Positions 39,745-62,847 of a stretch of DNA of 64,000 nucleotides are shown here, one piece after another. Under the pieces are notes generated by a model. That model was not told the DNA's origin, searched no databases, and saw only the letters and a list, made by a program, of their open reading frames with translations. Positions within the stretch are counted from its first letter, which is position 1. Each line of letters begins with the position of its first letter. The DNA lies in the NCBI GenBank assembly GCA_937996625.1, contig CALKVA010000008.1:20902-84901 (forward strand), written 5' to 3'. The translations under genes and the position numbers were made by a program. The DNA is from an uncultured Alphaproteobacteria bacterium. GTDB taxonomy: Bacteria > Pseudomonadota > Alphaproteobacteria > Puniceispirillales > Puniceispirillaceae.

Positions 39745-39750
39745 TAAATA

Positions 39751-40947: not shown

Positions 40948-41027
40948 AATCTCTCACCCATTATCACATAAGATAGCGGCCAGCCATTCACCAACCCATA
41001 TCTAATTTCATCCTATTATACCACAAG

Positions 41028-41059: not shown

Positions 41060-41083
41060 CTTCTAATTTTTAAAAAAACCGCT

Positions 41084-42371: not shown

Positions 42372-42403
42372 TTTTTCCCCCGACCGAAGTCCTGTTTATT
42401 GAA

Positions 42404-42415
42404 AATATCGATAAT
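42404..42415. promoter_or_regulatory. palindromic operator candidate AATATCGATAAT (copy 1 of 5)
   Basis: Exact TATCGATA core at 42406-42413 in the 61-bp gap between the TauE gene and the MCE-like gene, 33 bp upstream of the MCE-like start codon. Confidence 0.55.
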
Positions 42416-42432
42416 TTTACAATTTGCAAGTA

Positions 42433-43170
42433 TTATGAATTGAAAATCAATGCAATACCAAGAGAAAATAATATTGTGTATGTAATGTACCTAAAATAGG
42501 CTTCAGACACTTTATCAAACAAAAAAATACCTGCCCTTAACCCGACTGATAGAGGGATAGAAAGCACGAGCCCAATTACAAGGAATTTAGAGTCAAAACC
42601 TTGCACAAAAATGAAATAAGCAAAAAACGATAATATCGTGCATATTATAACGAGCTGTATATTACTTTGAATGATATTTTTTTCAACTGGAGACGAAAAA
42701 AAATAAATTCCGGTAAAAGGGCCTGTAGGAACACCAAAAAAGCCCGAGAACAGGCCTGTTACCCACCCGAATCCAAGAGATATAAGTCTTGTTTGAGGCC
42801 CATTGTATCGCCAGCCGGAGAAGAGAATTAATGTCCCGACAATTATAAAAATTCCCATGTAAAAAGTAATTTGTGATATTTCATTCTTGAAAAGAAAATT
42901 TAAACCCATAAAGGCGCCAACGCAAAGCCCTGCGCTATAAAAAAGAGTTATTTTTTTTTGTGAATATTTCACAGCTCTTCTCACAGTAAACATAACACCC
43001 ACCAAACCCGACAAGATAATAATATTCATTCCAGCAATAGGGCCAAGAAGAAGAGTGTAACAAGGCAACATAAATAATGAACCTGCAAAACCAGTAAACC
43101 CTCTTACAATCCCTCCAAGAAAAGCTATTAAAACACATAAAAAGAGCGTGGATAATTCTATATCAAACAA
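42433..43170 (-). CDS. TauE/SafE-family permease
   Basis: 245-aa polytopic protein with family-typical G-rich helices (FLGGIVRGFTGFAGS ... GFFGVPTGPF). Confidence 0.7.
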   Translation of the reverse strand: MFDIELSTLFLCVLIAFLGGIVRGFTGFAGSLFMLPCYTLLLGPIAGMNIIILSGLVGVMFTVRRAVKYSQKKITLFYSAGLCVGAFMGLNFLFKNEISQITFYMGIFIIVGTLILFSGWRYNGPQTRLISLGFGWVTGLFSGFFGVPTGPFTGIYFFSSPVEKNIIQSNIQLVIICTILSFFAYFIFVQGFDSKFLVIGLVLSIPLSVGLRAGIFLFDKVSEAYFRYITYTILFSLGIALIFNS

Positions 43171-43376
43171 TTAATAAGTTCCTTTATTATTCAGCTCTAG
43201 GAAGAGCAGCTTGCGGTCATTGCCTTTGCTTGTATCGTTTGAGACAGTTTATTAACAGTTGTTTTTTATATTAGAAGTGGCTTAACATTTTATCATAAAA
43301 ATCAATCAATTCTAAATGTATCAAATATTCATTCTACCAAAATATATCAATTAAATTATGAGTTTAGGGGAGAGAA

Positions 43377-44348
43377 ATGACAGGAAAGCAAATCACGAGA
43401 GACGATTTAAGAGTAGCCGCCGAAAAGTATAAGAATTGGGGGAAATGGGGGCCTGATGATGAAATAGGTACCTTAAACTATACCTCGGCGAACGATATTG
43501 TTGAAGCGGCACAGCTTGTCAATCAAGGAAAAGTAATCTCTCTTGCCCTCAATTTTGATTCAAACGGCCCACAAGGTGCAAAATCTAAATATCAATCGCT
43601 TGGCAGAATAAACCCACTTCATACGATGCTACGAACAGGAACTGATGCCTATTCCGGCGTTCTTGACCAGCGGGGGATTCGCGCCGCAGACGATATGATT
43701 GTTATGCCGTTGCAGTCGGGAACCCAGTGGGACGGCCTTGGACATATATTTTATGAGAATTTCATGTGGAATGGCTATGATTGCAGAGAAGTAACCTCTG
43801 CTGGAGCGCAGAAATGTGGCATTGAAAAAACAAAGAGTAAAATGGTCGGACGCGGCGTTTTATTAGATGTACCAAAAGAAATGGGTGTTGAGCGGCTAGA
43901 GGATGGTTACGGGATTACATGCGATGATCTGGACAGGGCCGCAAAATCCCAGCAGGTTGAAATTAAGCGCGGGGATTATGTAATTGTTCGCACTGGCCAA
44001 ATGGAAGAAATGCTTAAAAATGGAAATTGGGATGGCTATCCTGGAGGCGATGCGCCTGGGTTTGCTTTTGAGACGCTAGAATGGCTACAAGAAAAAGAAA
44101 TAGCAGCCATTGCCTCAGACACTTGGGGTTGTGAAGTACGCCCCAACGAATCCGTGGAAGGCATAAATCAGCCATGGCATTGGATTACAATCCCAATTAT
44201 GGGCATTACGATGGGAGAAATATTTTCTCTTGGCGAATTAGCAGCTGATTGCGCTTCAGACGGAATTTATGAATTTATGTTTGTTGCGCCAGCCTTACCC
44301 ATTACAGGCGCTGTTGGCTCGCCTACCAACCCACTTGCTATAAAATAA
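43377..44348 (+). CDS. cyclase-family protein (kynurenine formamidase / isatin hydrolase fold), long variant
   Basis: 323 aa. NWGKWGPDDEIGTLNY N-terminus and QSGTQWDGLGH in place of the family HxGTHxDxPxH motif. SD GGGGAG before the ATG. Confidence 0.7.
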   Translation: MTGKQITRDDLRVAAEKYKNWGKWGPDDEIGTLNYTSANDIVEAAQLVNQGKVISLALNFDSNGPQGAKSKYQSLGRINPLHTMLRTGTDAYSGVLDQRGIRAADDMIVMPLQSGTQWDGLGHIFYENFMWNGYDCREVTSAGAQKCGIEKTKSKMVGRGVLLDVPKEMGVERLEDGYGITCDDLDRAAKSQQVEIKRGDYVIVRTGQMEEMLKNGNWDGYPGGDAPGFAFETLEWLQEKEIAAIASDTWGCEVRPNESVEGINQPWHWITIPIMGITMGEIFSLGELAADCASDGIYEFMFVAPALPITGAVGSPTNPLAIK

Positions 44349-44490
44349 TTATTAGTTGGGATAGGAGCTACGCTTTTTCTAGAATAATTGGACATATTTT
44401 TTGAACTAACGGAGCGTTTAGCCCCTAAACTAATTATTACAACCCATGCATTGTTGAAGACGCCTTTTTAATAAGAATGGAATCACATAA

Positions 44491-46167: not shown

Positions 46168-46210
46168 CATAACCCAAACAAACTTATCACCGAACAAACA
46201 GGAGAGATTT

Positions 46211-47392: not shown

Positions 47393-47424
47393 ACTAAATA
47401 GAAATCAAGATTAGGGAGTTCAGA

Positions 47425-48648: not shown

Positions 48649-48745
48649 TATAAGCTTAACTATTAAAAAAAGGCAGCTTGCATTCGCCCAAACTGCCTTT
48701 TTCCCAAACTGCGTTTTTATAGTTTCATTTGAAACCGAAAATTAA

Positions 48746-49810
48746 CTAGAGACCTAGTAGCTTTTCTGCATTGCCACCGACAATCTTCGCGATATCTTCT
48801 TCTGTAAGAGATGTAGTGCCTGTAACATGACCAATTGGATCATCTTCAGCCATATCATACGGATAGTCAGTTCCCATCACAATTTTATCAGACCCATAGA
48901 TCTTTACAAGATAATCTAACTGCTCATAGGTAAACACAACTGTATCAAAATAGATTTTGCGCAAATAATCAGATGGCTTGCCCTTAATTATTTCGCGGCA
49001 ATCTGGGCGTGCACCCCATGCATGGTCGATACGTCCTGCATAAGCTGGCAGATATCCCCCGCCATGAACCGCAAGTATCTTAAGATTTGGATAGCGCTCA
49101 AGTGTCCCATCAAAAATCAAATGATGAATAGCAACTGTTGTATCAAGAGGGTTTCCGATGATGTTATTGAAATAATGGTTTAGGAAACGGTCGCCTTGCG
49201 GATATCCGTTCGGGTGCAACACCATTAATGTGTCAAGCTTTTCTGCCATTTCCCACATTGGATCAAGACTTCTATCTGATAGCTCAGTACCATTTACAGA
49301 TCCTAGAACCTGAAATCCTTTTAGACCTAATTCTTTTACACCGCGTTCCATTTCACGTGCAGCAGCATCACCATCCTGAAGTGGTAAATGTCCTAGCGCT
49401 AGAAATCTGTCAGGGCGAGATTGCGCAATAGATGCTAATTTATTATTGATGGTCTGGATAGCTTTATGGCCAACAGAATTTCGGACTGAATAATATGCCT
49501 GAAAAGGAACAGGAATAAGCACCTGCATATCAATTCCTTGACGGTCCATATCACGAAGGCGCTGATCCAAGTCTGTTAGATGAACGATTCTATCCTCTTG
49601 GTTTTGCTTCACATTTTGAGCAGTAGTGCGCGGATTTGTATATCTAACAGCTGGAATAGCCATCGGATTTAAAATCCCGTCTACAAGATCATGAGCCTCT
49701 TGAACATGAAGATGACAATGCGCGTCAATTGTAAGACGCGACGGACGAGTTTCTGCCCCTGACTTACCATGTTTTCTGGCAGCTGTTGCGCCATAAGGTC
49801 TTAATTCCAT
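48746..49810 (-). CDS. amidohydrolase-2 family protein (ACMSD/LigW-type non-oxidative decarboxylase-like)
   Basis: 354 aa. IDAHCHLH, LMVLHPNG, LAVHGGG, MGTDYPYD metal-ligand pattern. Confidence 0.75.
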   Translation of the reverse strand: MELRPYGATAARKHGKSGAETRPSRLTIDAHCHLHVQEAHDLVDGILNPMAIPAVRYTNPRTTAQNVKQNQEDRIVHLTDLDQRLRDMDRQGIDMQVLIPVPFQAYYSVRNSVGHKAIQTINNKLASIAQSRPDRFLALGHLPLQDGDAAAREMERGVKELGLKGFQVLGSVNGTELSDRSLDPMWEMAEKLDTLMVLHPNGYPQGDRFLNHYFNNIIGNPLDTTVAIHHLIFDGTLERYPNLKILAVHGGGYLPAYAGRIDHAWGARPDCREIIKGKPSDYLRKIYFDTVVFTYEQLDYLVKIYGSDKIVMGTDYPYDMAEDDPIGHVTGTTSLTEEDIAKIVGGNAEKLLGL

Positions 49811-49939
49811 TTTTATCCTCCAAAAAAACCATCAAAAATACCAGACCCTGCGTTTACGTACCCCAACAGAGACATGGCGTGTTAAAAATTTATCTTCTTT
49901 TTTTGCGTGACTTCGTTTGAAGTCTACCCAATTCCGCAA

Positions 49940-49951
49940 AATATCGATAAT
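49940..49951. promoter_or_regulatory. palindromic operator candidate AATATCGATAAT (copy 2 of 5)
   Basis: Exact core at 49942-49949 in the 253-bp divergent region between the ACMSD-like amidohydrolase gene (-) and CoA-transferase subunit A gene (+). Confidence 0.55.
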
Positions 49952-50063
49952 ATGCTACAAAAGATATACATAAAACAACAGATATTTTAAACAAAACTTG
50001 ATAAATGAGAATTTTTTTAAATGTACACTTGCTTTTACATTTTGATTATGGCGTGCTCTGGCC

Positions 50064-50939
50064 ATGATTGATAAGGTTATGACTGCGCAACAAGCAGTCA
50101 AAAAATACATCCATAATTCAGATACAGTCTTCATTGGCGGCTTTGGACATGCCATTGCGTTCGCAATTGCACATGAAATAGTTCGACAAAAAAAACACAG
50201 TCTTCATCTTGTAAAGACAGGAGCTGATATTGTTTTTGATTTGCTGATTGCAGGTGGGTGTGCCAGCAGATTAAGCTGCGGATGGTATGGTAATCCAGGT
50301 ATCGGCATGAGCAATATAATCAGCAAAGCTGTTGCGTCAGGTGAGCTTGCATTAACCGAAAGCACAAATTTTTCGATGATGTTGCGCTTGCATGCTGGCA
50401 AGCTTGGGGTGCCTTTTATCCCCTCGCCTATATTAGCTGATGGCGATTTAGCTGGCAGTGTTAATGGTATTAAAACGATAAAATGTCCGTTCACAGAGGC
50501 ACAATATCAAGCACATAGTGCCTTAAATCCAGATGTGGCCATCATTCATGCACAACGTAGTGACATGAATGGAAATGTTCAGCTATGGGGTTCTGTTGGT
50601 GATACAATTGAGGGCTGTGAGGCATCACAAAAAATAATCTGTTCTGTTGAAGAAATCTGCGAGAGCGAGGAAATACTTCTCTGCCCGCATCTAACAAAGC
50701 TACCAGCGCATAAAGTCGTCGCTGTCATAAAACAGCCCTTTGGCGCATACCCCTCTTATTTGCATGATTATTATCAAAGAGATGAGAGATATTACGCAGA
50801 GTATACAAGCGATACCAAAGATAGCTTGAAATCAGATGAATGGCTTCAAACAAGCGTTTTTGACCATGAAGACTTTGATAGCTATCTTAACAGCTTGCCC
50901 GGCACGCTATTAGACCAATTAGCCTGGAGCAAATCATGA
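50064..50939 (+). CDS. family I CoA-transferase, subunit A (glutaconate CoA-transferase-like)
   Basis: 291 aa. N-terminal KVMTAQQAVKKYIHNSDTVFIGGFG. ATGA overlap with subunit B. Confidence 0.75.
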   Translation: MIDKVMTAQQAVKKYIHNSDTVFIGGFGHAIAFAIAHEIVRQKKHSLHLVKTGADIVFDLLIAGGCASRLSCGWYGNPGIGMSNIISKAVASGELALTESTNFSMMLRLHAGKLGVPFIPSPILADGDLAGSVNGIKTIKCPFTEAQYQAHSALNPDVAIIHAQRSDMNGNVQLWGSVGDTIEGCEASQKIICSVEEICESEEILLCPHLTKLPAHKVVAVIKQPFGAYPSYLHDYYQRDERYYAEYTSDTKDSLKSDEWLQTSVFDHEDFDSYLNSLPGTLLDQLAWSKS

Positions 50940-51706
50940 ATACAAACACAGCATCCAGCGATAATAACAACGGTATGGAAAAGCCGTTAATTACAGATGA
51001 GATTATCTCACAAGCCCGCGCCGCTTTTATGGCGGCACGTGAAATTAAAGACCATCAGACATTATTTGTTGGCATAGGTTTGCCATGTCTTGTTGCGCAT
51101 CTTTCTCAATCTGTTTTATCCCCTAACTGCCATCTCGTTTTCGAATCGGGATTGATGGAGGTCGCATGCGAAACACAGCCTCTATCAACTGCCAGCGCCA
51201 ATATCGCGAAAACTGCAAAAATGCATGGCTCCATGCTAGATGTTTTTAGTATGCTTCAGCGAGGCGAGATTGATGTTGGCTTATTATCAGCAGCACAAAT
51301 TGACATACATGGCCACCTCAATAGCAGTAGGTTAACTACAAAATCTGGGAAAACTTTATCATTGCCAGGCTCAGGAGGGGCGCATGACATTACCGTTTTA
51401 GCCAATAAAGTAATTGCGGTGATGCCATCTGACCCAAGGCGATTTGTAAATAATGTTGATTTTATAACCTCTCCAAACAGCCCTTATGGCAATAGAGAAG
51501 GTGTGGCAGGCGTTGCAATGCCAGATGCTTACTTTAGCTTTGATACTGGCAGGCCTATTCTGCAAAAAATTTATTCAGATAGGAATGCTGATTCGATAAA
51601 TGAATCTCTTAATTGGGATTCCGAGATTTCAGATAGCCTTGAGATAGTAAATCCGCCAGAGGGTGATTTGATAGAAAGAGCTGGAATATTTCTAAAAAAT
51701 AGTTAG
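50936..51706 (+). CDS. family I CoA-transferase, subunit B
   Basis: 256 aa. VFESGLME (catalytic Glu region), LPGSGGAHD. Confidence 0.75.
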   Translation: MNTNTASSDNNNGMEKPLITDEIISQARAAFMAAREIKDHQTLFVGIGLPCLVAHLSQSVLSPNCHLVFESGLMEVACETQPLSTASANIAKTAKMHGSMLDVFSMLQRGEIDVGLLSAAQIDIHGHLNSSRLTTKSGKTLSLPGSGGAHDITVLANKVIAVMPSDPRRFVNNVDFITSPNSPYGNREGVAGVAMPDAYFSFDTGRPILQKIYSDRNADSINESLNWDSEISDSLEIVNPPEGDLIERAGIFLKNS

Positions 51707-51796
51707 CTGATAGCCTGTCATTTTGATTTAATTCCAATTTTAGGTAGTTTTTTGTATAGACAAATTTTCTACAATCGTTAAATCCTAATAAAACAA

Positions 51797-51808
51797 ATTA
51801 TCGATAAA
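51797..51808. promoter_or_regulatory. palindromic operator candidate ATTATCGATAAA (copy 3 of 5)
   Basis: Exact 10-bp palindrome TTATCGATAA at 51798-51807, 39 nt upstream of the LigI-like amidohydrolase start. Confidence 0.55.
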
Positions 51809-51847
51809 TCAATTATCTAAATATAAAGCGAAATTTGGAGACAAAAA

Positions 51848-52741: not shown

Positions 52742-52816
52742 TTAGTTTATTCCTTAATTTTAGGATACATCTTATTTATATAGTAAGGTGTATCCGTCCT
52801 AAACTGGAGAATATCG

Positions 52817-53578: not shown

Positions 53579-53669
53579 TCATATTAATAATAGCTCCTCT
53601 GGCTAATAATCAAGTCCTCCGATATGGCTATAAATGGGTAGATGACAAAAAGGCAGACTGGAAAAAAAG

Positions 53670-55361
53670 ATGGATGATAAAAAAACTGGGATTAAACAAA
53701 ATCTAACAAATTACGGAGATCTTGGTTTTTCCACATTTCTGCGCAAATCATTTATCAAAGGGTTAGGCTATTCTGATGAAATGCTGGATAAACCAATTGT
53801 TGGTATCATTAACACCTTCAGCGATTATAATTCCTGTCATGGAAATGTGCCTGATTTAATTCAAAGCGTAAGAGCTGGCATTTTGGCAAAAGGGGCTATT
53901 CCTCTTGAATTCCCCACAATTTCTGTTCATGAAGCTTTTTCTTATCCAACTTCAATGTATCTTCGCAACCTTATGGCAATGGATACAGAGGAGATGATTA
54001 GAGCACAGCCTATGGATTCATGTGTGCTTATTGGTGGTTGTGATAAAACGGTTCCTGCCCAATTAATGGGGGCCTTAAGCGTTGATATGCCTGTAATTCA
54101 GCTTGTAACTGGTCCAATGTTAACAGGCTCTCATAGGGGCGAGCGCGTAGGCGCATGCACAGATTGCCGGAGATTATGGGCTAAATTTAGAGCAGATGAA
54201 ATCGATGAGGCAGAAATTAATGAGGCCAATAATCAGCTTGTACCAACGGTTGGTACCTGCGGTGTGATGGGAACAGCTAGTACCATGGCGATGATTGCTG
54301 AAACACTTGGAATAATGCCACCTGATTCTTCCTGCGCTCCTGCTGTATCTTCTGAGAGGCGCAGAATCTCTGAAAAAACAGGTCAGATAGCGGTTGATAT
54401 CGCAATAAACAAACGCAGGCCAAGCAGTATCCTTACCGCAAAATCATTTGAAAATGCCTTAATGGTACTTCTTGCGATCGGGGGATCTACTAATGCCCTT
54501 ATTCATCTTGCAGCAATTGCAGGGCGCATGGGTATAAAGCTGGATATGGAATCATTTGATGCGCTTTCGCGAACCATACCTGTTATTGTTGATTTAAAGC
54601 CTTCAGGTGAAGGGTATATGGAAGATTTATATAAAGCAGGTGGTCTTCCGCGAATTCTTCTTGAATTGAAAGATAAGCTGCATCTTGATGTCTCCACCGT
54701 TACTGGAAAAACACTGAGGCAAACAATCGAGGAGACTGAGTTTTCATGGCAGCAAAATATTGTTAAATCAGCAGCAGACCCTATTTACCGCGAAGGCGGG
54801 ATGGCCGTTCTTAAAGGCAATCTTGCTCCAAATACAGCCATTATAAAACAATCTGCTGCAAGTGATAGTCTTCTTACTCACTCAGGGCGAGCGGTTGTGT
54901 TTGATGGGCTTGAAGATTTGGCAAACAGAATAGATAGCGAAGAGCTAGATGTTCATAAAGAGGATATCTTGGTGTTGAGATATATTGGACCCAAAGGAGC
55001 CCCTGGAATGCCAGAGGCAGGCCTAATTCCTATTCCAAAAAAGCTCGCACGACAAGGTGTCAAAGACATGGTTCGGATTTCGGATGGGCGTATGAGTGGA
55101 ACGGCATCTGGCACTATCATACTTCATGTTTGTCCAGAAGCAGCAGATGGTGGTCCGCTGGCGCTTGTCCAAACCGGCGATAAGATAAGCCTTGATGTAA
55201 ATTCAAGAAGCCTGCATCTGCATGTAGAAGATAGTGAACTTGCCAGACGCCAAGAAACGCTTGATCTCAGGAGATTTATCGCCAAAAGGGGCTACCATAA
55301 ATTATATATGGAACATGTCTTGCAGGCAGATGAAGGGGTGGATTTTGACTTTCTCGTTTAG
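53670..55361 (+). CDS. IlvD/Edd-family dehydratase (sugar-acid dehydratase-like)
   Basis: 563 aa. GGCDKTVPAQLMG, TCGVMGTASTMA, ISDGRMSGTASG. Confidence 0.88.
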   Translation: MDDKKTGIKQNLTNYGDLGFSTFLRKSFIKGLGYSDEMLDKPIVGIINTFSDYNSCHGNVPDLIQSVRAGILAKGAIPLEFPTISVHEAFSYPTSMYLRNLMAMDTEEMIRAQPMDSCVLIGGCDKTVPAQLMGALSVDMPVIQLVTGPMLTGSHRGERVGACTDCRRLWAKFRADEIDEAEINEANNQLVPTVGTCGVMGTASTMAMIAETLGIMPPDSSCAPAVSSERRRISEKTGQIAVDIAINKRRPSSILTAKSFENALMVLLAIGGSTNALIHLAAIAGRMGIKLDMESFDALSRTIPVIVDLKPSGEGYMEDLYKAGGLPRILLELKDKLHLDVSTVTGKTLRQTIEETEFSWQQNIVKSAADPIYREGGMAVLKGNLAPNTAIIKQSAASDSLLTHSGRAVVFDGLEDLANRIDSEELDVHKEDILVLRYIGPKGAPGMPEAGLIPIPKKLARQGVKDMVRISDGRMSGTASGTIILHVCPEAADGGPLALVQTGDKISLDVNSRSLHLHVEDSELARRQETLDLRRFIAKRGYHKLYMEHVLQADEGVDFDFLV

Positions 55362-55412
55362 CTTCGGGTCTGGTTTTGTTTTTGGTACGCTGAATGACTA
55401 GAACTATCTGCT

Positions 55413-56318
55413 ATGAATTCTAATATATTTATTGGCGTATTATGGATGGTATTAACAACCATTTGTTTTTCGCTAACGCTGACAGTTGTTCGCTATATCG
55501 GAACAGATATGCCAGCAACACAAGCTGCATTTATTCGTTATTTGTCAGGTGCAATCATACTGGCACCTTTCTGGCTGCCTGTTATGCGGCGATTATTAAT
55601 AGATACAAAAAACCAACCATCAGAAGCCATAAAGATGAAACGAAAAAGTCTACGATTCTTTGTTTTGCGCGGGGCTATTCATAGTATAGCGGTAATTTTA
55701 TGGTTTTATGCAACTATTCATATTCCAATTGCCGAAGTCACCGCTATTGGATATTCAATTCCTCTTTATGTTACAATCGGGGCAGCTTTGTTTTTTGGCG
55801 AGCATTTAAAGCCATACCACCTAATAGCACTTGGTATTGGATTTATAGGCGCGATGGTCATTATTAGACCTGGTTTTCAGCAAGTCTCTCTTGGACAATT
55901 GGCACAATTGCTTGCCTCCCCAATATTTGCAACTTCCTACCTGATGGCAAAACGCCTTTCTTTCAAAGAAAGCTCAATGGTTATTGTTGGTATGCTAAGC
56001 TTATTTGTATCTATGGCTCAAATACCAATGGTGCTGGTAGTATGGGAGAACCCAGATTTTTTTGATGTTATTTGTCTTGGGTTAGTAGCTATTTTAGCAA
56101 CAACTGGGCATTATGCTATGACACAATCTTTCCGCCTTACGCCAATGACGATTAGCCAACCTGTCACTTATTTGCAACTTGTCTGGGCAAGTATTATGGG
56201 CATTTATCTATTTGGTGATAGGTTTGATATTTTTGTGATACTGGGCGGAGCCATGATAACACTCTCTGCCACTGTAATTGCGTATTTGGATACAAGAGCT
56301 CCAAAAGATGCTATTTAA
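55413..56318 (+). CDS. DMT-superfamily (EamA) transporter
   Basis: 301 aa, 10 predicted TM helices in two EamA halves. Confidence 0.8.
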   Translation: MNSNIFIGVLWMVLTTICFSLTLTVVRYIGTDMPATQAAFIRYLSGAIILAPFWLPVMRRLLIDTKNQPSEAIKMKRKSLRFFVLRGAIHSIAVILWFYATIHIPIAEVTAIGYSIPLYVTIGAALFFGEHLKPYHLIALGIGFIGAMVIIRPGFQQVSLGQLAQLLASPIFATSYLMAKRLSFKESSMVIVGMLSLFVSMAQIPMVLVVWENPDFFDVICLGLVAILATTGHYAMTQSFRLTPMTISQPVTYLQLVWASIMGIYLFGDRFDIFVILGGAMITLSATVIAYLDTRAPKDAI

Positions 56319-57862
56319 TCGCTTTCAAATAAAGTCTTGAACTGATCTCTCAATAAATTTTTCTGGACTTTTCCCATACTATTTCTTGGCAGTGATGACA
56401 CGAACGCCACATGTTTTGGGCGTTTGTAATTCACAAGCTGGCTAGATAAGTAATTTACCACATCTGTTTGTGAAAGCTCGGCATCTTGTTGGGTAACAAT
56501 AACCGCAATAACGGCCTCTCCAAAATCTGCATGAGGAACACCGACAACTGCACTCTCACTCACCTGTGTCAGCTCGTCCAAAACTGTTTCAATCTCTTTA
56601 GGGTAGATATTAAATCCCCCAGAAATGATTAAATCCTTCTCTCTGCCAACGATGGAGATATAGCCATCCTCATCACGGCAAGCAAGATCCCCTGATATGA
56701 AATATCCATCAGAGCGAAATTCTGCTGCTGTTTTTTCGGGATTCTGCCAATAGCCTGTAAATAGGTTCGGACCCTTCATCTCAAGACTTCCAACCTCACC
56801 TTCAGCAACCTCCTCCATCGTCTCTCCTGAGGTTATACGCACAGTTATACCGTCAAGCGGCATACCTACTGTACCAGCTTTTCTTGTTCCATCATAGGGG
56901 TTTGAGGTAATCATGTTCGCTTCTGTCATACCGTAGCGTTCCAGAATCGCATGACCTGTTTTCTGGGTCCATTCTTCATGTGTTTGCGCCAATAAGGGCG
57001 CTGAACCAGACACAAATAAACGCATATTCTGAGCCGCCGAAGATAAATCAGGATGCTGAAGCAAGCGTGTATAGAATGTAGGAACGCCCATTAGCGAGGT
57101 AGCTGACGGCATCGCTTGGATAACTTTTTCTGTATCAAATTTATCCATAAACAGCATTTCAGCACCACTTACCAATGCAACATTAGTAGCCACAAATAGC
57201 CCATGAGTATGAAAAACAGGTAGAGCATGTATTAACACATCCTGCGCACTAAACTTCCACTGCCTGCATAGCGTTGATGCATTTGAGCCTAATGCACGGT
57301 GAGGTATCATTGCGCCCTTTGGTCTTCCTGTTGTGCCAGATGTATATAAAATAGCTGCTATATCTTCTTCCTGCCGCTCAGCAACAGAAGTAAATTTAAC
57401 ATTCTTCGAATTTATATCTTCATAGAATGAACCAGACTTATCAGCACCCATACTATATATAAAAGGAACATTTGATTCGCGTGCGATTTGGAATAATGTT
57501 TCCATTCTATCAAGCATGCAGACAAAAATGGTGGGCTGAGAATCATTCAAATAATAAGATACTTCTGTATCTGTAAAATCAGGATTTAGCGGGATATAGA
57601 TTCCACCTGCCATTATCACAGCTACATATAAACACAAGCTGTCTGACGATTTTGGTGTTTGAACAACTATCCTGTCACCTGCCTTTAATCCTAAATTTTG
57701 AAAAAAAGCACAATAGCGCTCGCAAATGGCAAAAAATGCCTCTCTGGTTATGGGCGCATCACCATTAGCAAAACGAATGAGCGTAGCATCTGGAGAATCA
57801 GCTAGGTGAGTGGCCAGAAGATTGATAAGAGCATTAGGTGAATAAGAAGAAGATGGGTACAT
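56315..57862 (-). CDS. matB: malonyl-CoA synthetase-like acyl-CoA ligase (ANL superfamily)
   Basis: 515 aa. LYTSGTTGRPKGA. The long stretch IHALPVFHTHGLFVATNV...GVPTFYTRLL...RLFVSGSAPLL...GHAILERYGMTE...GKVQKNLLR is colinear with rhizobial MatB as I remember it. Confidence 0.75.
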   Translation of the reverse strand: MYPSSSYSPNALINLLATHLADSPDATLIRFANGDAPITREAFFAICERYCAFFQNLGLKAGDRIVVQTPKSSDSLCLYVAVIMAGGIYIPLNPDFTDTEVSYYLNDSQPTIFVCMLDRMETLFQIARESNVPFIYSMGADKSGSFYEDINSKNVKFTSVAERQEEDIAAILYTSGTTGRPKGAMIPHRALGSNASTLCRQWKFSAQDVLIHALPVFHTHGLFVATNVALVSGAEMLFMDKFDTEKVIQAMPSATSLMGVPTFYTRLLQHPDLSSAAQNMRLFVSGSAPLLAQTHEEWTQKTGHAILERYGMTEANMITSNPYDGTRKAGTVGMPLDGITVRITSGETMEEVAEGEVGSLEMKGPNLFTGYWQNPEKTAAEFRSDGYFISGDLACRDEDGYISIVGREKDLIISGGFNIYPKEIETVLDELTQVSESAVVGVPHADFGEAVIAVIVTQQDAELSQTDVVNYLSSQLVNYKRPKHVAFVSSLPRNSMGKVQKNLLRDQFKTLFESD

Positions 57863-57974
57863 GGCTGCTTTTTTTCAGATAAATTGTTTTGAAGGCTAGA
57901 AAATCCTAAAAAATACAAAGATAATCTCATTTTTTACTGTGTTTTCTTATAACAGCAACATATCAGAACTTCAT

Positions 57975-58020
57975 CTTTTTATTTCAGCCTATACATTATA
58001 GCCTTTTCATTTCGGCCTAT
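57975..58020. repeat. 18-bp imperfect direct repeat in the matB / ABC divergent promoter region
   Basis: CTTTTTATTTCAGCCTAT (57975-57992) and CTTTTCATTTCGGCCTAT (58003-58020) are 16/18 identical, with starts 28 bp apart. Confidence 0.45.
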
Positions 58021-58114
58021 TTATTTCAAGATGAAAAAAAACGTTGCAGCTGAAACATTTTTTTTACAAATAAAATATTTTCTTGTTGATCTAAACGAAT
58101 GCGATGCTAAGCTT

Positions 58115-58126
58115 ATTATCGATAAT
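58115..58126. promoter_or_regulatory. palindromic operator candidate ATTATCGATAAT (copy 4 of 5)
   Basis: Perfect 12-bp palindrome in the matB / ABC-operon divergent region, 28-40 nt upstream of the ABC ATPase start. Flanked by CTAAG...CTTAG. Confidence 0.55.
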
Positions 58127-58154
58127 CTTAGTGATGTTACTTTAAATATTCACC

Positions 58155-58958
58155 ATGGGGGAAAATATGGCCGCGTCTGCTAAAAAGGCAGAAGACCTTT
58201 CACAATTTGGTCAAACTGTTATAGAAGGAAAAAATGTAACAAAAATCTTCGGAGAAACTGTTACAGCACTCGAAGGAGCTAATTTTGATATCCAAGCTGG
58301 TGAATTTATTTCACTCGTTGGACCTAGCGGTTGTGGTAAATCGACATTATTGCGCCTTGTGGCAGGATTAATTGAAAAAACTTCTGGTGATGTTAAAGTT
58401 AACGATGATTTAGTGACCAAACCACGAACTGATATTGGTATGATGTTTCAGAAAGCGGTGCTACTTGATTGGCGTACAGCGATAGAAAATGTTCTATTGC
58501 CATCTGAAATGAAACACCGAATTACTCAAGAAGACAAAGATAAAGCGATGGCCTCCCTTGAGCTTGTTGGATTGAAGGGATTCGAATTTCATTTTCCAAA
58601 GCAATTATCAGGCGGAATGCAGCAACGTGTAGCACTCGCAAGGCTTATTCAAACAGGCGCTGATATTATGCTAATGGATGAACCTTTTGGTGCTCTTGAT
58701 GAATTCACAAGAGAGCGCTTGAACGTTGAGTTAATGCGTATTGTCGGTGAACTAAAAGCAACAACATTGTTTGTGACACACAATATTCAAGAAGCAATTT
58801 ACCTTGCGGACAGAGTGATGGTTATGACACCACGCCCTGGAAAAATAGCAGAGATTATCGAAGTCAAGTTCGAACGTCCAAGAGATATATCTATTCAGAC
58901 CAGTCGTGAATTTAATATAATCATAGAGCAGGTGAGAGACACGTTGGGGAGTCATTGA
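58155..58958 (+). CDS. ABC transporter ATP-binding protein, NitT/TauT (nitrate/sulfonate/bicarbonate) family
   Basis: Walker A GPSGCGKST, signature LSGGMQQR, Walker B LMDEPFGALD. The in-frame ATG at 58167 has a GGGGGA SD and is the likelier start. Confidence 0.88.
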   Translation: MGENMAASAKKAEDLSQFGQTVIEGKNVTKIFGETVTALEGANFDIQAGEFISLVGPSGCGKSTLLRLVAGLIEKTSGDVKVNDDLVTKPRTDIGMMFQKAVLLDWRTAIENVLLPSEMKHRITQEDKDKAMASLELVGLKGFEFHFPKQLSGGMQQRVALARLIQTGADIMLMDEPFGALDEFTRERLNVELMRIVGELKATTLFVTHNIQEAIYLADRVMVMTPRPGKIAEIIEVKFERPRDISIQTSREFNIIIEQVRDTLGSH

Positions 58959-58962
58959 TTAG

Positions 58963-59820
58963 ATGTCCTATTCAACGAGCCAACAAACCAAAAATATTAG
59001 CTTATTTAAGACACTACCATTCCATTTGCTCATATTTGCTGCGCTTATTGTGATTTGGGAATTGACAAATCTCTACGGGTTTGAGGACCAAATTCAAGCG
59101 GATATGATTGCACCAAGACCAACTAACATTGTTCTTGCCATGCTTGATATTTTCATTGTCGATAAAACAGTTTGGAAACATCTGATATCTACTTTTCAAA
59201 AAGCTTTGTTAGGCGCAAGTATTGGTACTGCAATAGGTATGGGTTTAGCGATTGCAGCGACACTTAGCCTGACCTTCAGAAAATACATAAAGCCTTGGAT
59301 TATTTTAATGGAAGCAACACCTAGAATTGCTGTTGGTCCCATCTTTGTCGCTCTTTTAGGGTTCGGATTATGGTCAGCAGTTGCACTTGCTGCATTAGTT
59401 GCGTTCTTCGGCCCATTTGTAAATACGTTTCAAGGATTAATGGAAGTTGATGATGAAGCAGAAGAGATGTTTCGCTCTCTTGGAGCATCACGGTTTCAGA
59501 CATTCTGGAAGTTAAGATTTGCGTCCGCTATGGAACTAATATCAGCTGGTTGGAAACTTGCTACTGCTTCTGCATTTGGCGGCGCACTTGTTGCTGAATT
59601 TATTCAAGCAAGTGAGGGAATGGGCGTTCTAATTGCGCAATATGTGATCATGATTACCATGGATTACGCATTTGCAGGACTTTTATCCGTTACTATATTT
59701 GGATTTATATTATTTAAAATAATGGATTATTTCGACTACCGTCTGATTTTTTGGAAAAATGATTATCTTCTTTTAAAAGAAAGTGAAAAAAGACGCAAGA
59801 AAGCAGGGATTGTATCATGA
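58963..59820 (+). CDS. ABC transporter permease (NitT/TauT family), first of two
   Basis: 285-aa polytopic protein with a BPD_transp_1-type loop (FRSLGASRFQTFWKLRF). Confidence 0.85.
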   Translation: MSYSTSQQTKNISLFKTLPFHLLIFAALIVIWELTNLYGFEDQIQADMIAPRPTNIVLAMLDIFIVDKTVWKHLISTFQKALLGASIGTAIGMGLAIAATLSLTFRKYIKPWIILMEATPRIAVGPIFVALLGFGLWSAVALAALVAFFGPFVNTFQGLMEVDDEAEEMFRSLGASRFQTFWKLRFASAMELISAGWKLATASAFGGALVAEFIQASEGMGVLIAQYVIMITMDYAFAGLLSVTIFGFILFKIMDYFDYRLIFWKNDYLLLKESEKRRKKAGIVS

Positions 59821-60653
59821 AAACAGTAAGCTTTTTGGTATCGTTTTTAAAATATTCACTTAGTTTTATCCTAGTCCTTGGTTTATGGGAAGTGTACGCA
59901 AGATATGGAGGACTAAATGAGTTATTTTTGCCTCGCCCATCAAAAATTGGAGCTAAGCTATATAGCCTTTTCGTAAAGTTTGAAGTCATCGAGCAAGGCA
60001 CGATATATTGGCATTTTTTTGCAACGCTAGCACAAATGAGTATCGGATTTGTTTACGGAATAACGATTGGAACAACATTAGCGGTACTAGCAGCGTTTAA
60101 CGAAACATTTAGAAGATATGTTGCCCCTTATGCAGTTGTCTTTAATGTAACACCTGGTATTGCGGTTCTTCCATTAATTATTGCTTGGTTCGGTTTTGGC
60201 TGGGAATCCAAGATTGCTTTGGCAACATTGGTATGTTTCTTCCCACCATTTATTAATACATTAACTGGTTTGTTAAAGAAGAATGACGAAGCGATTGAGC
60301 TGTTTCAGACAATTGGTGCAACTCAGTCACAATATTTCTGGAAGCAACAACTTCCAAATGCATTACCCGAGGTTTTTGCTGGATTAAAACTTGCAATCAC
60401 GACAGCGTTACTTGGCACGATTGTAGCGCAGTTTGGATCAGCAACTGAAGGGGTAGGAATTCTAATGCAGCGATTTGCGTTTAGGCTAGATATGGCTGGC
60501 TCGTTCGCTTCATTAGTTACGATGGCTATCATGGGTCTATTAGTTTTCACCATTGCAGAAGTGATGGACAGACGTATCGTGTTTTGGCGTGATGCCAAAG
60601 GTCTAGAGCGGGTGTCCAAAAAGAAGCAACGTAAACTAATGGTCAATGGGTAG
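59817..60653 (+). CDS. ABC transporter permease (NitT/TauT family), second of two
   Basis: 278 aa, paralogous to the previous gene (FQTIGATQSQYFWKQQLP). ATGA overlap. Confidence 0.85.
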   Translation: MKTVSFLVSFLKYSLSFILVLGLWEVYARYGGLNELFLPRPSKIGAKLYSLFVKFEVIEQGTIYWHFFATLAQMSIGFVYGITIGTTLAVLAAFNETFRRYVAPYAVVFNVTPGIAVLPLIIAWFGFGWESKIALATLVCFFPPFINTLTGLLKKNDEAIELFQTIGATQSQYFWKQQLPNALPEVFAGLKLAITTALLGTIVAQFGSATEGVGILMQRFAFRLDMAGSFASLVTMAIMGLLVFTIAEVMDRRIVFWRDAKGLERVSKKKQRKLMVNG

Positions 60654-60690
60654 GCAAAAAAAGTGAAGACCTTAATGTGAGGTTTTTAAA

Positions 60691-61761
60691 ATGAGCGTAA
60701 GGGAGAAAAATATGCTTAAAAAAATATTAGCGACCGCGATAGCAGTTGCAGTGATATCGCCAATGTCAGCTATGGCTGGCGGACACCTGGATAAAATCAC
60801 AATTATCCAACCTTCTTATCCGTCAATGATTTTCTGGCCGTCACATATCAGTGCACAGCTAGGATTTTATGAGGAGCAAGGTATTGACCCAACATATCTT
60901 GATGGTGATACAACCGTTCCATATCAGGCTTTCCTATTAAATGGACAAGCTGACTTTGCAATGCTTGACGGCCCTCAGGTTTTCCAGGGTGCCGCTGCAG
61001 GTATGGGTTTAAAAACTGCCTATTCAGTTCATAGTTCAGCACCAGAGGGTGTTTATGTAAATGATGATAGCCCACTTCAAAGCGTAACTGAGCTAAAAGG
61101 TAAGACTGTTGGTCTTGCATCAGACCGTGACCTTGCTTCTCTAAAAGTTGCATTAGCTCATGCTGATTCAAATACTGATGGTATTAGCACAGTTGTTGTT
61201 GGTGACGCGGGTCCTACATTGGCAAACGTATTTCTAAAAGGAACAGCTGCTGCATTCGCAGGTTCAATTTCTGACTTGGCAGCACTTGCAACCAAAGGTG
61301 TTATTGTAAGAGATATCACACCTCCATCAGCAAAAGTTGCTCCTGCAAACACATATGCTGTTAACGGCGCAACAATGATGGATAACTATGACAAATATTG
61401 TCGTTTCCTAAAAGCATACTCAATGGGTGTGCACGTTGGTCATTACAACCTAGATATCATTGCAGCTATGTCAAAGGCACCTGATGGTTCGCCAGCACAG
61501 TGGGAAGTTGAATCAGTGGGTAATTCCTACTTAGCAGCTGTGGCAAAACTTCAGTTACCACCAGAAGGTGACACATTATATGGCTTGGTAGCTGAGTCTG
61601 CATGGCTTACAGTTAACAATGATATGAAGATGATCGGTGCAGTAGACGCAGATTATGATACAAATGATTATCTTACACACGTATTCGAAGGCTGTGCAAA
61701 CAACTTCGATCGTGCGGCAGTTGAAGCAGCTGCTGATGCATGGATGGCTAAAAACGGTTAA
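60691..61761 (+). CDS. periplasmic substrate-binding protein, NMT1/THI5-like (NitT/TauT family)
   Basis: Signal peptide MLKKILATAIAVAVISPMSAMA. The ATG at 60712 has an AGGGAG SD and is the likelier start. Confidence 0.75.
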   Translation: MSVREKNMLKKILATAIAVAVISPMSAMAGGHLDKITIIQPSYPSMIFWPSHISAQLGFYEEQGIDPTYLDGDTTVPYQAFLLNGQADFAMLDGPQVFQGAAAGMGLKTAYSVHSSAPEGVYVNDDSPLQSVTELKGKTVGLASDRDLASLKVALAHADSNTDGISTVVVGDAGPTLANVFLKGTAAAFAGSISDLAALATKGVIVRDITPPSAKVAPANTYAVNGATMMDNYDKYCRFLKAYSMGVHVGHYNLDIIAAMSKAPDGSPAQWEVESVGNSYLAAVAKLQLPPEGDTLYGLVAESAWLTVNNDMKMIGAVDADYDTNDYLTHVFEGCANNFDRAAVEAAADAWMAKNG

Positions 61762-61783
61762 TCTAGCATTATAAAATAGATTT

Positions 61784-61815
61784 GGGCGCTTGAGTTATAT
61801 CAAGCGCCCTTTTTT
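61784..61815 (+). terminator. rho-independent terminator of the NitT/TauT-type ABC operon
   Basis: GGGCGCTTGA-gttata-TCAAGCGCCC perfect 10-bp stem followed by T6. Confidence 0.85.
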
Positions 61816-61845
61816 ATGCGTAAAATCATGCTTAATTAAAATTGA

Positions 61846-62715
61846 TTAAATAACAGGATTTGTAAGTGACCCCAATCCTGTAACGTTGATTGTAACAACA
61901 TCTCCAGATTTCAAAAACTTCGGAGGGTTGAAACCTATACCTACACCAACAGGTGTTCCAGTTGCAATTATATCTCCTGCAAGAAGTGTCCCTGTTAAGG
62001 TAAGAGTTTCAATTAAAGTTGGTATGTCAAATATGAGATCGCGAACCTCTGCTTGCTGGCGAACCTCATTATTCACAAGCGTTTGAATTTGCATAGATGG
62101 CAAATCACCTATTTCATCCTTGGTCACAATATAAGGACCCATCGGTCCAAACGTATCCAAGCCTTTTCCAATTGTCCATTGGTTATGCTTTTTCTGCAAC
62201 TCACGAGAAGTGACATCATTGATAATGACATACCCAAATACGTAATCCTGCCAATCAGCTTTGGCAACACGCCGCGCTGTTTTGCTAATTATCACACCAA
62301 GCTCACCTTCATAATCAACAGATTCTGTTGGATCAATTGAGGCATTAATGGCATCATTTGGCCCAATTAGCGATGTCATTGCTTTGGTGAAAATTATGGG
62401 CTCAGATGGAATTGTTTCTTTCTGAGTTGCATCGAAACCTGAATCAAAAAACTCCTTTGCATGTGCATAGTAATTTTTTCCAACACATACCATATCTCTG
62501 ATGAGATACGGTATCGGAGCTAGTATCTGAACATCGGTTAAATCTCTTCTCTCAGCAGTATCGATGATATCGTCCCAAGATGCCATATTACCATTGCGTA
62601 TAATAGATAGGACAGCCATATCGGCCCCCTCTCCTTCAACACAACAGACAAACTCATCGCCGATAATCATGCCTGCTTTTATGTTACCATTATCCTTTAC
62701 AGTTGCGAGTTTCAT
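61846..62715 (-). CDS. fumarylacetoacetate hydrolase (FAH) family protein
   Basis: 289 aa. DYEGELGVII, INDVTSRELQ, GTPVGVG motifs of the FAH C-terminal domain. Confidence 0.88.
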   Translation of the reverse strand: MKLATVKDNGNIKAGMIIGDEFVCCVEGEGADMAVLSIIRNGNMASWDDIIDTAERRDLTDVQILAPIPYLIRDMVCVGKNYYAHAKEFFDSGFDATQKETIPSEPIIFTKAMTSLIGPNDAINASIDPTESVDYEGELGVIISKTARRVAKADWQDYVFGYVIINDVTSRELQKKHNQWTIGKGLDTFGPMGPYIVTKDEIGDLPSMQIQTLVNNEVRQQAEVRDLIFDIPTLIETLTLTGTLLAGDIIATGTPVGVGIGFNPPKFLKSGDVVTINVTGLGSLTNPVI

Positions 62716-62758
62716 AACGCTCCTTCCTTCTGGTTATTTACTAAAAATACTCTAGCCA

Positions 62759-62770
62759 ATTATCGATAAA
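62759..62770. promoter_or_regulatory. palindromic operator candidate ATTATCGATAAA (copy 5 of 5)
   Basis: Exact TTATCGATAA at 62760-62769 in the 132-bp divergent region between the FAH gene (43 nt away) and the HIBADH-TauE pair (77 nt away). Confidence 0.55.
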
Positions 62771-62847
62771 TGTGAACATAATAATATCAACATTTTAATT
62801 AATAAAAAAAACTGCTGGATTAACAATAATAACAAAACGGAGTTATC

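Follow-up and report, generated by a model that had tools for sequence, protein, structure and literature searches.

Described operators with a related core

Among the closest described counterparts of the palindrome analysed here are operators of GntR-family repressors. Those of the GntR/FadR subfamily are palindromes of 10-12 bp, either of the form NyGTM-N0-1-KACNy or, in the case of BioR, TTATMKATAA (PMC4494728). The BioR box is bound by a FadR-subfamily GntR regulator of the Alphaproteobacteria, and the sites validated by EMSA are TTATCTATAA and TTATAGATAA (PMC4494728, PMC4554459). Another box, AwATATCGATATwT, is given in PMC6449761 for AphS and BphS of Betaproteobacteria, GntR-family proteins that repress the degradation of phenol and biphenyl; Arai 1999 and Ohtsubo 2001 are cited there for the operators.

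Occurrence of the palindrome in the SAR116 window

The window, by which the whole analysed stretch of 64 kb is meant, belongs to an uncultured marine SAR116 (Puniceispirillales) alphaproteobacterium. SAR116 is one of the abundant heterotrophic lineages of the surface ocean, and the regulation of its genes is, to our knowledge, almost entirely unexplored. Exact matching of the window yielded exactly five copies of TATCGATA, at 42406, 49942, 51799, 58117 and 62761, as reported in the first-pass annotation, and all of them were found in spacers between long ORFs, in agreement with their description as intergenic. The reported extension of all copies to a 12-mer of the form A(A/T)..(A/T) was also reproduced, with AATATCGATAAT and ATTATCGATAAA occurring twice each and ATTATCGATAAT, the perfect 12-bp palindrome described for copy 4, occurring once. 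The consensus of the sites is a-W-TATCGATAA-W, with the pseudo-palindrome TTATCGATAA. The sites are listed below with the predicted promoters, whose assignment is based on visual inspection for consensus and conservation and not on mapped transcription starts:

42404..42415, no strand: site 1, AATATCGATAAT, flanked on one side by the stop codon of TauE and on the other by the beginning of the minus-strand MCE-ECH-CoA-transferase operon; exact match
42402..42429, minus strand: predicted MCE-operon promoter, TTGCAA-16-TATTTT; hexamers by eye, conserved in the alignment
49940..49951, no strand: site 2, AATATCGATAAT, in a spacer of 253 bp that separates Amidohydro_2 from the divergent CoA-transferase A/B genes; exact match
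51797..51808, no strand: site 3, ATTATCGATAAA, 41 nt upstream of a lactonase-like (LigI-like) gene; exact match
51757..51784, plus strand: predicted LigI-SDR-IlvD-EamA operon promoter, TAGACA-16-TAAATC; conserved block t(a/g)GACAAAtTTT...GTTAnAnC
58115..58126, no strand: site 4, ATTATCGATAAT, perfect 12-bp palindrome in the matB / ABC transporter spacer; exact match
58086..58113, plus strand: predicted NitT/TauT-type ABC operon promoter, TTGATC-16-TAAGCT; conserved TTGTTGATCT...TGCTAAg block
62759..62770, no strand: site 5, ATTATCGATAAA, in a spacer of 132 bp that separates the FAH unit from the divergent HIBADH-TauE unit; exact match
62749..62782, both strands: two overlapping divergent promoter-like sites, plus TAGCCA-18-CATAAT and minus TTCACA-16-TAGAGT; promoter scan, consensus matches only

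The G+C content was 41% for the window, close to the approximately 60% A+T assumed in the first-pass annotation, and 31% for the non-coding DNA, which makes up 7-8% of the window. The expectation of about two copies in 64 kb was too high, since dinucleotide-preserving shuffles of the window gave a mean of 0.79 copies of TATCGATA, with five or more copies in 0 of 100 shuffles. For the 4.4 kb of intergenic DNA a first-order Markov model predicts about 0.09 (0.086) copies compared to the five determined, so that the intergenic placement is indeed unlikely by chance, as had been argued. In 2000 simulations of intergenic DNA, no palindromic 8-mer containing G/C reached five or more copies, whereas palindromes consisting only of A/T were often present five times. 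The commonest 8-mer of the intergenic DNA is ATCGATAA.

The nearest start codons lie 34, 41, 42 and 45 nt from sites 1, 3, 4 and 5, respectively (the distance for site 4 is counted to the ATG at 58167 and would be 30 nt for the ATG at 58155). For site 2, the distances to the two divergent start codons are 131 and 114 nt. This corresponds to the earlier description of four copies shortly upstream of a start codon and one in a divergent region. A sixth TATCGATA crosses the left window edge within a gene for an ECF sigma factor. It is a coding copy with G/C flanks and was not visible in the first-pass annotation because it straddles this edge. The ECF sigma factor encoded at the start of the window is accompanied by a ChrR-type anti-sigma partner. 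All five intergenic sites are located within one island of 20 kb, and none was found in the other approximately 62 kb examined. The regulon proposed as "distributed" touches five gene units, but it is less spread than suggested.

A comparison with the described operators showed that the sites agree with TTATMKATAA at 10 of 10 positions for sites 3-5 and at 9 of 10 for sites 1 and 2. For AwATATCGATATwT (PMC6449761), agreement was found at 13, 12, 12, 10 and 12 of 14 positions for sites 1 to 5. The BioR box fits and the AphS/BphS box comes close, and the assertion that no characterised operator has such a consensus does not hold (PMC4494728, PMC4554459, PMC6449761). With BioR the SAR116 sites share the class Alphaproteobacteria, a 10-bp core with the half-sites TTAT..ATAA, and the location in promoter regions, where the BioR sites mediate repression; BioR, too, can be encoded apart from some of its targets. 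In contrast, the centre of the SAR116 sites is CG, compared to AG or CT in the validated BioR sites, and no exact match to AG-, CT- or AT-centred variants of the box was found in the window. Furthermore, the SAR116 targets are catabolic and not bio genes, each promoter of the island has one site, and neither the window nor its flanks yielded a bioR-like gene. With the AphS/BphS box, the TATCGATA core is identical, and in the known systems catabolic operons are repressed until an intermediate of the pathway releases the repressor. These systems differ by a T at the position of the invariant A at +5 of TATCGATAA, by several adjacent sites instead of one per spacer, by a regulator encoded in or next to the cluster, of which none was found in the SAR116 window and flanks, and by their aromatic meta-cleavage pathways, for which no genes are present in the window.

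Putative target units

Annotation with Pfam and NCBIfam gave the following units next to the sites:

38629..42371, minus strand: unit 1, MCE (glyoxalase fold), enoyl-CoA hydratase, family III CoA-transferase and MR/MLE enolase-superfamily enzyme (Pfam)
48746..51706, both strands: unit 2, Amidohydro_2 (minus), divergent from CoA-transferase subunits A and B (plus) (Pfam)
51848..56318, plus strand: unit 3, Amidohydro_2 lactonase-like protein, SDR, IlvD/EDD dehydratase and EamA transporter (Pfam, NCBIfam)
56315..61761, both strands: unit 4, malonyl-CoA synthase (minus) / ABC ATPase, two permeases and NMT1-type binding protein (plus) (Pfam)
61846..64000, both strands: unit 5, FAH-family hydrolase (minus) / HIBADH-like dehydrogenase and TauE (plus), extending beyond the window end (Pfam, NCBIfam)

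The malonyl-CoA synthase of unit 4 scored 719 bits against NF005702 (cutoff 558). Among the approximately 80 genes annotated in the window and flanks, none was assigned to bioB, bioF, bioD, bioA, bioZ or bioY, and the Pfam/NCBIfam annotation of the window contained no gene for an extradiol dioxygenase or a phenol hydroxylase.

Conservation in SAR116 relatives

Phylogenetic footprinting, as proposed in the first-pass annotation, showed that at least eight sister species (loci L010-L018 and L176) have all five sites at the orthologous positions; their neighbouring proteins share 72-99% identity. All 35 aligned sites carry TATCGATAA unchanged, while their flanks drift and the identity of the neighbouring proteins drops to 72-85%. 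The outermost symmetric position that was scored comprised only A or T (no G/C in 35 sites), and the positions beyond it were unconserved. Considered individually, site 1 was kept in all six clade loci that cover it, site 2 in eight loci, site 3 in all ten clade loci that cover it, site 4 in nine loci and site 5 in six loci, the latter with an invariant flank of about 40 nt. Site 2 is lost in one species, where the locus L012 carries the degenerate TATCGCCA followed by a 17-bp duplication. Extra copies in the relatives lie within genes and have G/C flanks, as would be the case for chance copies.

The clade that carries the motif has a G+C content of 38-42%. In the low-GC SAR116 clade, MR_MLE-CoA_transf_3-ECH-MCE-TauE and LigI-SDR-IlvD-OsmC-FrsA form one divergon, in which the genes of unit 1 constitute one operon. 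Genes of three window units thus lie in a single divergon, so that these units are functionally linked. The motif itself was not found in the orthologous promoters of other SAR116 clades, and the TATCGATA copies of the low-GC clade and of high-GC relatives proved to be coding or unrelated.

Predicted promoters and proposed mode of action

Conserved hexamers resembling -35 and -10 elements overlap or adjoin four of the five sites. Site 1 covers the spacer of the predicted MCE promoter together with the first two bases of its -10 hexamer, site 4 begins 3 nt past the predicted -10 hexamer and would cover the predicted start site, site 3 lies 14 nt downstream of its predicted -10 hexamer, at about +8 to +16, and site 5 is located inside the spacers of both divergent promoter-like sites. 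Judged from these predictions, the palindrome would occupy a repressor-type position at the four sites.

Altogether, the five TATCGATAA palindromes exist far beyond chance, are conserved and lie in promoter regions. Their position on the promoters of neighbouring operons, together with their conservation in sister species, makes them very probably the binding sites of one repressor. As a complete explanation it is considered probable that they are operators of one homodimeric repressor encoded outside the window, most likely a GntR regulator of the FadR subfamily (FCD) with BioR/AphS-like specificity. The operator would lie on the core promoter or just downstream of it (site 1: on the -10 hexamer; site 4: at the start; site 3: about +8 to +16; site 5: in the spacers), and a bound repressor would consequently block the binding of RNA polymerase or promoter escape. 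A pathway intermediate would then release the repressor; typical effectors for such a GntR family are carboxylates or acyl-CoAs. In this way the sites would place about 20 genes of a catabolic island of 25 kb under one signal. The island encodes steps of the sugar-acid type (lactonase, SDR, IlvD-type dehydratase, FAH), CoA-transferases with hydratase and epimerase, malonyl-CoA synthase, and transport by a NitT/TauT-type ABC importer and TauE-type permeases. The earlier proposal of operators of one regulon is supported by the orthologous conservation in contrast to the diverged flanks, by the promoter-like hexamers and by the linkage of the units. Several observations count against this explanation, among them the failure to find a regulator gene in the window and flanks and the metagenomic LacI loci described below. 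Site 2 has no convincing -35 hexamer and no clear promoter context, the spacer shared by the Cyclase-TPP-OsmC-FrsA operon and the TauE gene (42433-43170) has no site, and targets of BioR, AphS and BphS often carry two or more adjacent sites compared to one here.

Search for the regulator

No transcription-factor gene was detected by Pfam and phmmer in the window or in its flanks (10 kb on the right and 8.3 kb on the left), in line with the first-pass annotation, which had recognised no HTH-type regulator gene between about 27 and 64 kb. The same holds true for GntR, FCD or LacI genes in any of at least 40 SAR116 loci searched by phmmer with seed regulators, a search that gave matches in control loci; it replaced regex screens for HTH signatures, which were too strict and remained empty even in the control loci. 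Since the window and flanks yielded neither a GntR nor any other regulator gene, the regulator protein is hypothetical. A cNMP-binding protein at 31140-31922 was rejected as a candidate, as it is without a DNA-binding domain. The contexts of MatB homologues were also discarded as a guide, with the Rhodobacterales MatB lying in an unrelated context without a regulator; P0007, another such context, turned out to be a further clade member. The literature search yielded no paper reporting a MatR operator sequence, and for TTATCGATAA only cloning primers.

In a metagenome sample, tandem copies of TTATCGATAA were found next to genes for LacI-family regulators at eight loci, compared to three loci with GntR+FCD genes. 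At the latter (L088, L113, L123), two or three copies lie directly upstream of the regulator gene and show no fixed flanks, as is the case for the SAR116 sites. This association speaks for a GntR regulator, and the larger number of LacI loci speaks against it. Most of the LacI-linked copies belong to the 16-mer ATGTTATCGATAACAT, in which positions +/-6 and 7 are TG..CA, and at the LacI-linked L062 and L078 the flanks consist of A/T, as they do in the SAR116 sites.

Alternative explanations

In the main rival reading, a LacI-family repressor encoded in trans would use the sites as its operators, control a sugar-acid catabolic regulon and insert its hinge helix at the central CpG. The palindrome with its central CG, the eight metagenome loci with pairs of TTATCGATAA directly upstream of LacI-family genes (including L062 and L078 with their A/T flanks) and the resemblance of the lactonase, IlvD-type dehydratase and FAH genes to sugar-acid pathways, which LacI-family regulators often control, are consistent with this possibility. 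The box of E. coli GntR/IdnR, which are LacI-family regulators of the gluconate-repressor type, is ATGTTACCGGTAACAT and served only as a lead. Sites of this type and the metagenomic ATGTTATCGATAACAT sites share with the SAR116 sites the central CpG, the inner 10 bp TTATCGATAA and target genes of the sugar-acid type. However, the outer TG..CA of most LacI-linked copies is absent from the SAR116 sites, which have unconserved A/T there, their conservation ends at 10-12 bp and is short compared to LacI-type operators (14-20 bp palindrome), and no LacI gene occurred in any SAR116 locus examined. A LacI-family repressor is therefore regarded as unlikely, though deserving attention. The sites could also be genuine BioR boxes that place the island in the biotin regulon, for example for a biotin-sparing supply of malonyl-CoA by MatB instead of acetyl-CoA carboxylase. 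This would agree with the nearly complete matches to TTATMKATAA (PMC4494728) and with BioR being specific to Alphaproteobacteria and without a known effector (PMC4554459). Compared to this, the CG centre differs from the AG or CT of the validated sites, the window and flanks contain no bioB, bioF, bioD, bioA or bioY, and the orthologous promoters of other SAR116 clades lack the motif. Although MatB and methylmalonyl-CoA epimerase adjoin biotin-dependent steps in metabolism, membership in the biotin regulon is highly improbable.

Functions other than that of an operator comprise a promoter element for RNA polymerase or an alternative sigma factor, a methylation or restriction target (ATCGAT forms part of the motif), a scar of recombination at the borders of cassettes, or an RNA element. 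The sites do lie at the borders of gene units that are rearranged relative to the low-GC clade, the parts GATAAT and TATTTT resemble -10 hexamers, and the sigma factor and its anti-sigma partner at the window start could be related to a promoter element. A fixed promoter element does not fit, however, since the position of the sites relative to the -35 and -10 hexamers varies (spacer, -10, +1, about +10). ATCGAT is present 17 times in the window, mostly within genes and without conserved flanks, and no longer repeat or mobile-element signature including the five sites was found around them. A perfect palindrome of 8 nt alone cannot form a stable hairpin, Rfam gave no match to the sites at the gathering threshold, and the fact that two sites serve divergent promoters argues for recognition at the DNA level. 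The readings as promoter element, RNA element and repeat element were consequently rejected on the basis of the variable position, the missing Rfam match and the missing longer repeat, and a non-operator function as a whole is given little credence. An A/T-rich 8-mer might also cluster by chance in spacers that are themselves A/T-rich, and this would be favoured by the low G+C content of the intergenic DNA (31% compared to 41% for the window) and by the frequent fivefold occurrence of all-A/T palindromes in the simulations. Against it stand the expectation of 0.086 copies and the result of 0 of 2000 simulations for palindromic 8-mers with G/C, and the conservation of five orthologous positions in at least eight species already refutes it, so that practically no probability remains for this reading.

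Possible origin and meaning of the putative regulon

With a FadR-subfamily GntR repressor as the preferred explanation, a history of the regulon can tentatively be proposed, which we regard as possible but rather doubtful. A BioR/AphS-like GntR specificity may have been recruited recently in a streamlined SAR116 genus, and its operator copied onto at least five promoters while the ancestral divergon broke up and gained units, namely malonyl-CoA synthase with the ABC importer, CoA-transferase A/B, and FAH with HIBADH and TauE. The outcome would be a compact regulon controlled in trans for a marine substrate, possibly linked to organosulfonates or sugar acids. If true, this would represent a datable rewiring of a regulon in an abundant uncultured lineage.

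The concept as such is standard operator-repressor biology of bacteria, and the regulon is of a solid but ordinary kind, as BioR and AphS/BphS boxes have already been described. Nonetheless, a regulon of five promoters with a clean operator provides a handle on an uncharacterised catabolic island, and the comparison with the low-GC clade points to one pathway that was split into several units which kept a common control. Weak half-site-like matches were additionally observed at 38496 and 38561, upstream of the gene for a peptide ABC binding protein.

Palindrome copies in the window

The window contains exactly five copies of the palindrome TATCGATA (sites 1-5, numbered from left to right), all of them within spacers flanked by long ORFs. 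The count, coordinates, intergenic position and 12-mer extensions reported in the first-pass annotation were reproduced.

Sites 1-5: start, 12-mer and placement relative to predicted promoters
Site 1: 42406; AATATCGATAAT; minus strand, TTGCAA-16-TATTTT, putative operator covering the spacer plus the initial bases of the -10 hexamer
Site 2: 49942; AATATCGATAAT; no convincing -35 hexamer in its spacer
Site 3: 51799; ATTATCGATAAA; TAGACA-16-TAAATC, putative operator 14 nt downstream of the -10 hexamer
Site 4: 58117; ATTATCGATAAT; TTGATC-16-TAAGCT, putative operator from 3 nt past the -10 hexamer, over the predicted start site
Site 5: 62761; ATTATCGATAAA; two overlapping divergent promoter-like sites, TAGCCA-18-CATAAT and TTCACA-16-TAGAGT, putative operator in both spacers

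Dinucleotide-preserving shuffling of the window (n=100) yielded a mean of 0.79 copies of TATCGATA, and five copies were reached in 0/100 cases. The non-coding share of the window amounts to 7-8%, with a G+C content of 31% compared to 41% for the whole window. For the 4.4 kb of intergenic DNA, 0.086 copies are expected from a first-order Markov model, and none of 2000 simulated intergenic sets contained a G/C-containing palindromic 8-mer at five copies. The commonest 8-mer of the window's intergenic DNA is ATCGATAA.

At sites 1, 3 and 4 the promoter hexamers were derived from conservation in alignments and at site 5 from a promoter scan; their coordinates were checked, and the placement of the sites relative to them is inferred. 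Since this placement varies from site to site, a function of the motif as a promoter element is disfavoured, and steric repression would fit.

A sixth copy of TATCGATA spans the left edge of the window (window 1-8; position 8367 in comparison locus L052). It carries G/C flanks, lies in the coding sequence of an ECF sigma-factor gene preceding a ChrR-type anti-sigma gene (311-967) and is most likely a chance occurrence. Weak matches, TTTTCGATAT and TTTTCGATTA, were observed at 38496-38505 and 38561-38570, upstream of a peptide ABC binding-protein gene.

Conservation across SAR116

Via orthologous loci of GTDB species representatives, the source was assigned to the SAR116 cluster (Puniceispirillales, uncultured), and near-identical contigs are contained in marine metagenomes. 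Within the genus-level clade of the window (loci L010-L018 and L176; 38-42% G+C, proteins beside the sites sharing 72-99% identity with their counterparts in the window), sites 1-5 are kept at orthologous positions. Footprinting of the orthologous spacers, as proposed at first pass, gave 35 aligned sites, in which the nine bases TATCGATAA are invariant, with A or T at the positions next to them, while the sequence farther out drifts. The sole loss in the clade concerns site 2 of L012 (8080-8140), which has decayed to TATCGCCA, with a replaced right half, and precedes a tandem duplication of 17 bp, GCCAATATGCTACAAAA. Extra copies of TATCGATA in L014, L015 and L017 lie inside genes and have no A/T flanks, as expected for chance.

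In more distant SAR116 lineages (30-32% G+C; lactonase-like protein 73-78% identical), the motif was not found upstream of the orthologue, and the copies of TATCGATA in this low-GC clade (L022-L043) are coding. There, the TauE-LigI spacer of a compact divergon (e.g. L024, around 9890-9990) carries another inverted repeat, AAAATGAT-N17-ATCATTTT, which is conserved and probably serves as operator for a different regulator of this pathway.

Directly to the right of site 2 (window 49950-49990), a block ATATGCTACAAA...ACATAAAACAACAnATATTTT is kept across species and may mark either a promoter or a further binding site within this divergent spacer. Downstream of site 3, at a distance of 8-10 nt, most sister species show AATTATCGA or AATGATCG, which resembles a half-site and is weakened to AATTATCTA in the window (51808-51822). 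In a Lichenihabitans MAG with 64% G+C (L045, 19290-19315), TTATCGATAATTTATCGA was observed in the interval separating a winged-helix gene from the gene of a CbbQ/NorQ-type ATPase; this occurrence seems unrelated to the SAR116 system.

Genes around the sites

The genes around the sites were assigned with Pfam and NCBIfam.

Gene units
Glyoxalase-fold methylmalonyl-CoA-epimerase-like protein, enoyl-CoA hydratase, family III CoA-transferase, MR/MLE enzyme
TauE
Cyclase, ThDP enzyme, OsmC-like protein, FrsA-like hydrolase
Amidohydro_2 divergent from CoA-transferase subunits A and B
Amidohydro_2 lactonase-like protein, SDR, IlvD/EDD dehydratase, EamA
Malonyl-CoA synthase divergent from a NitT/TauT-type ABC system with NMT1 binding protein
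FAH-family hydrolase divergent from a HIBADH-like dehydrogenase and TauE

Malonyl-CoA synthase exceeded its NCBIfam cutoff. The top NCBIfam matches to 4-sulfomuconolactone hydrolase, 2,4-didehydro-3-deoxy-L-rhamnonate hydrolase, L-threonate dehydrogenase and L-arabinonate dehydratase were all sub-threshold; together with the two TauE genes, they give a hint that the substrate of the island might be sugar-acid-like or an organosulfonate. Among 5.8 billion proteins, the relatives of this clade's malonyl-CoA synthase (56315-57862, minus strand) show a gap from 73% down to 57% identity, pointing to a lineage that is isolated or was acquired. Beyond the clade, MatB homologues reach no more than 57% identity and stand in unrelated contexts.

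For the ABC ATPase gene (window 58155-58170), the start is more likely ATG 58167, judged from a conserved ribosome binding site GGGGGA and an upstream ATG (58155) that is missing in relatives. A strong, bidirectional terminator-like hairpin of 10 pairs (7 G-C) lies at 61784-61809 between the convergent NMT1 and FAH genes.

In the low-GC clade, MR_MLE-CoA_transf_3-ECH-MCE-TauE faces LigI-like-SDR-IlvD-OsmC-FrsA on the opposite strand, forming one compact divergon, whereas in the window's clade its genes are split over three units with other genes between them. This arrangement is a separate line of evidence that sites 1 and 3 touch units of one and the same pathway, of which the OsmC-FrsA pair is also part, despite its site-less operon. 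The operator may have multiplied during rearrangement and extension of the cluster.

Search for the regulator gene

The first-pass statement that no HTH-type transcription-factor gene is recognisable between about 27 kb and 64 kb held in both searches. With phmmer, seeds of the GntR, LysR, IclR, TetR, LacI, MarR, Lrp, MerR, Crp and AraC families gave no match in the window or any SAR116 locus, while the same seeds matched control loci from other bacteria. In the Pfam analysis of the window plus 10 kb to the right and 8.3 kb to the left, the only regulatory proteins were the ECF sigma factor and its ChrR-type anti-sigma partner. A cNMP-binding protein (31140-31922, minus strand, 260 aa) was rejected as regulator, as a cyclic-nucleotide-binding domain but no DNA-binding domain was detected.

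ALTERNATIVES

Chance clustering is excluded by the statistics and the conservation; likewise, the sites are not part of a longer repeat, the end of a mobile element or a known RNA. If ATCGAT were a target of methylation or restriction, it would be left unexplained why, of the 17 ATCGAT in the window, only the flanked intergenic copies are conserved. The first-pass remark that no characterised operator with this consensus is known does not hold, since two published boxes fit. BioR, which represses biotin genes in Alphaproteobacteria and belongs to the FadR subfamily of GntR regulators, has the box consensus TTATMKATAA, which is called atypical for this subfamily (PMC4494728), and TTATCTATAA and TTATAGATAA were validated as BioR sites by EMSA (PMC4554459). 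Sites 3-5 match this consensus at 10/10 positions and sites 1-2 at 9/10. Nonetheless, a true BioR regulon is unlikely, because bio genes are missing, the centre is CG rather than AG/CT, and only a single clade carries the motif. The second box is the palindrome AwATATCGATATwT of AphS/BphS, GntR-family repressors of phenol and biphenyl degradation that occupy several sites at each promoter (PMC6449761); site 1 matches this consensus at 13/14 and site 2 at 12/14 positions.

Altogether, sites 1-5 are most probably operators of a trans-encoded repressor, and the regulon interpretation of the first-pass annotation is well supported by the comparative evidence. While the mechanism itself is unsurprising, the sites offer an entry point to an uncharacterised catabolic island of SAR116.

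Regulator family

A FadR-type GntR protein is the leading candidate for the repressor, and a LacI-family repressor is the main rival. A metagenome collection was scanned for pairs of TTATCGATAA at most 30 nt apart, and the genes facing them were classified. Among 35 such genes, 5 belonged to the LacI family, 3 were GntR with an FCD domain, 3 DUF2975 and 2 HTH_3; with improved seed sequences, 8 LacI loci compared to 3 GntR/FCD loci were obtained. These numbers favour LacI, as do two LacI loci with A/T flanks. However, most copies linked to LacI genes take the form of the 16-mer ATGTTATCGATAACAT, pairs of which lie upstream of LacI-family genes in L063, L068, L090, L093, L094 and L133 (the latter with CG..CG flanks), whereas the copies linked to GntR/FCD genes consist of the 10-mer alone and have no fixed flanks. 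In L088 (5063-5097) and L113 (2033-2065), three TTATCGATAA at a 12-bp period are located directly upstream of a GntR+FCD gene, which is paired with a gene for a kdgK-like PfkB kinase. Since G or C was found at the outermost symmetric position scored in 0/35 of the SAR116 sites, these resemble the GntR/FCD type more closely than the usual LacI-linked form.
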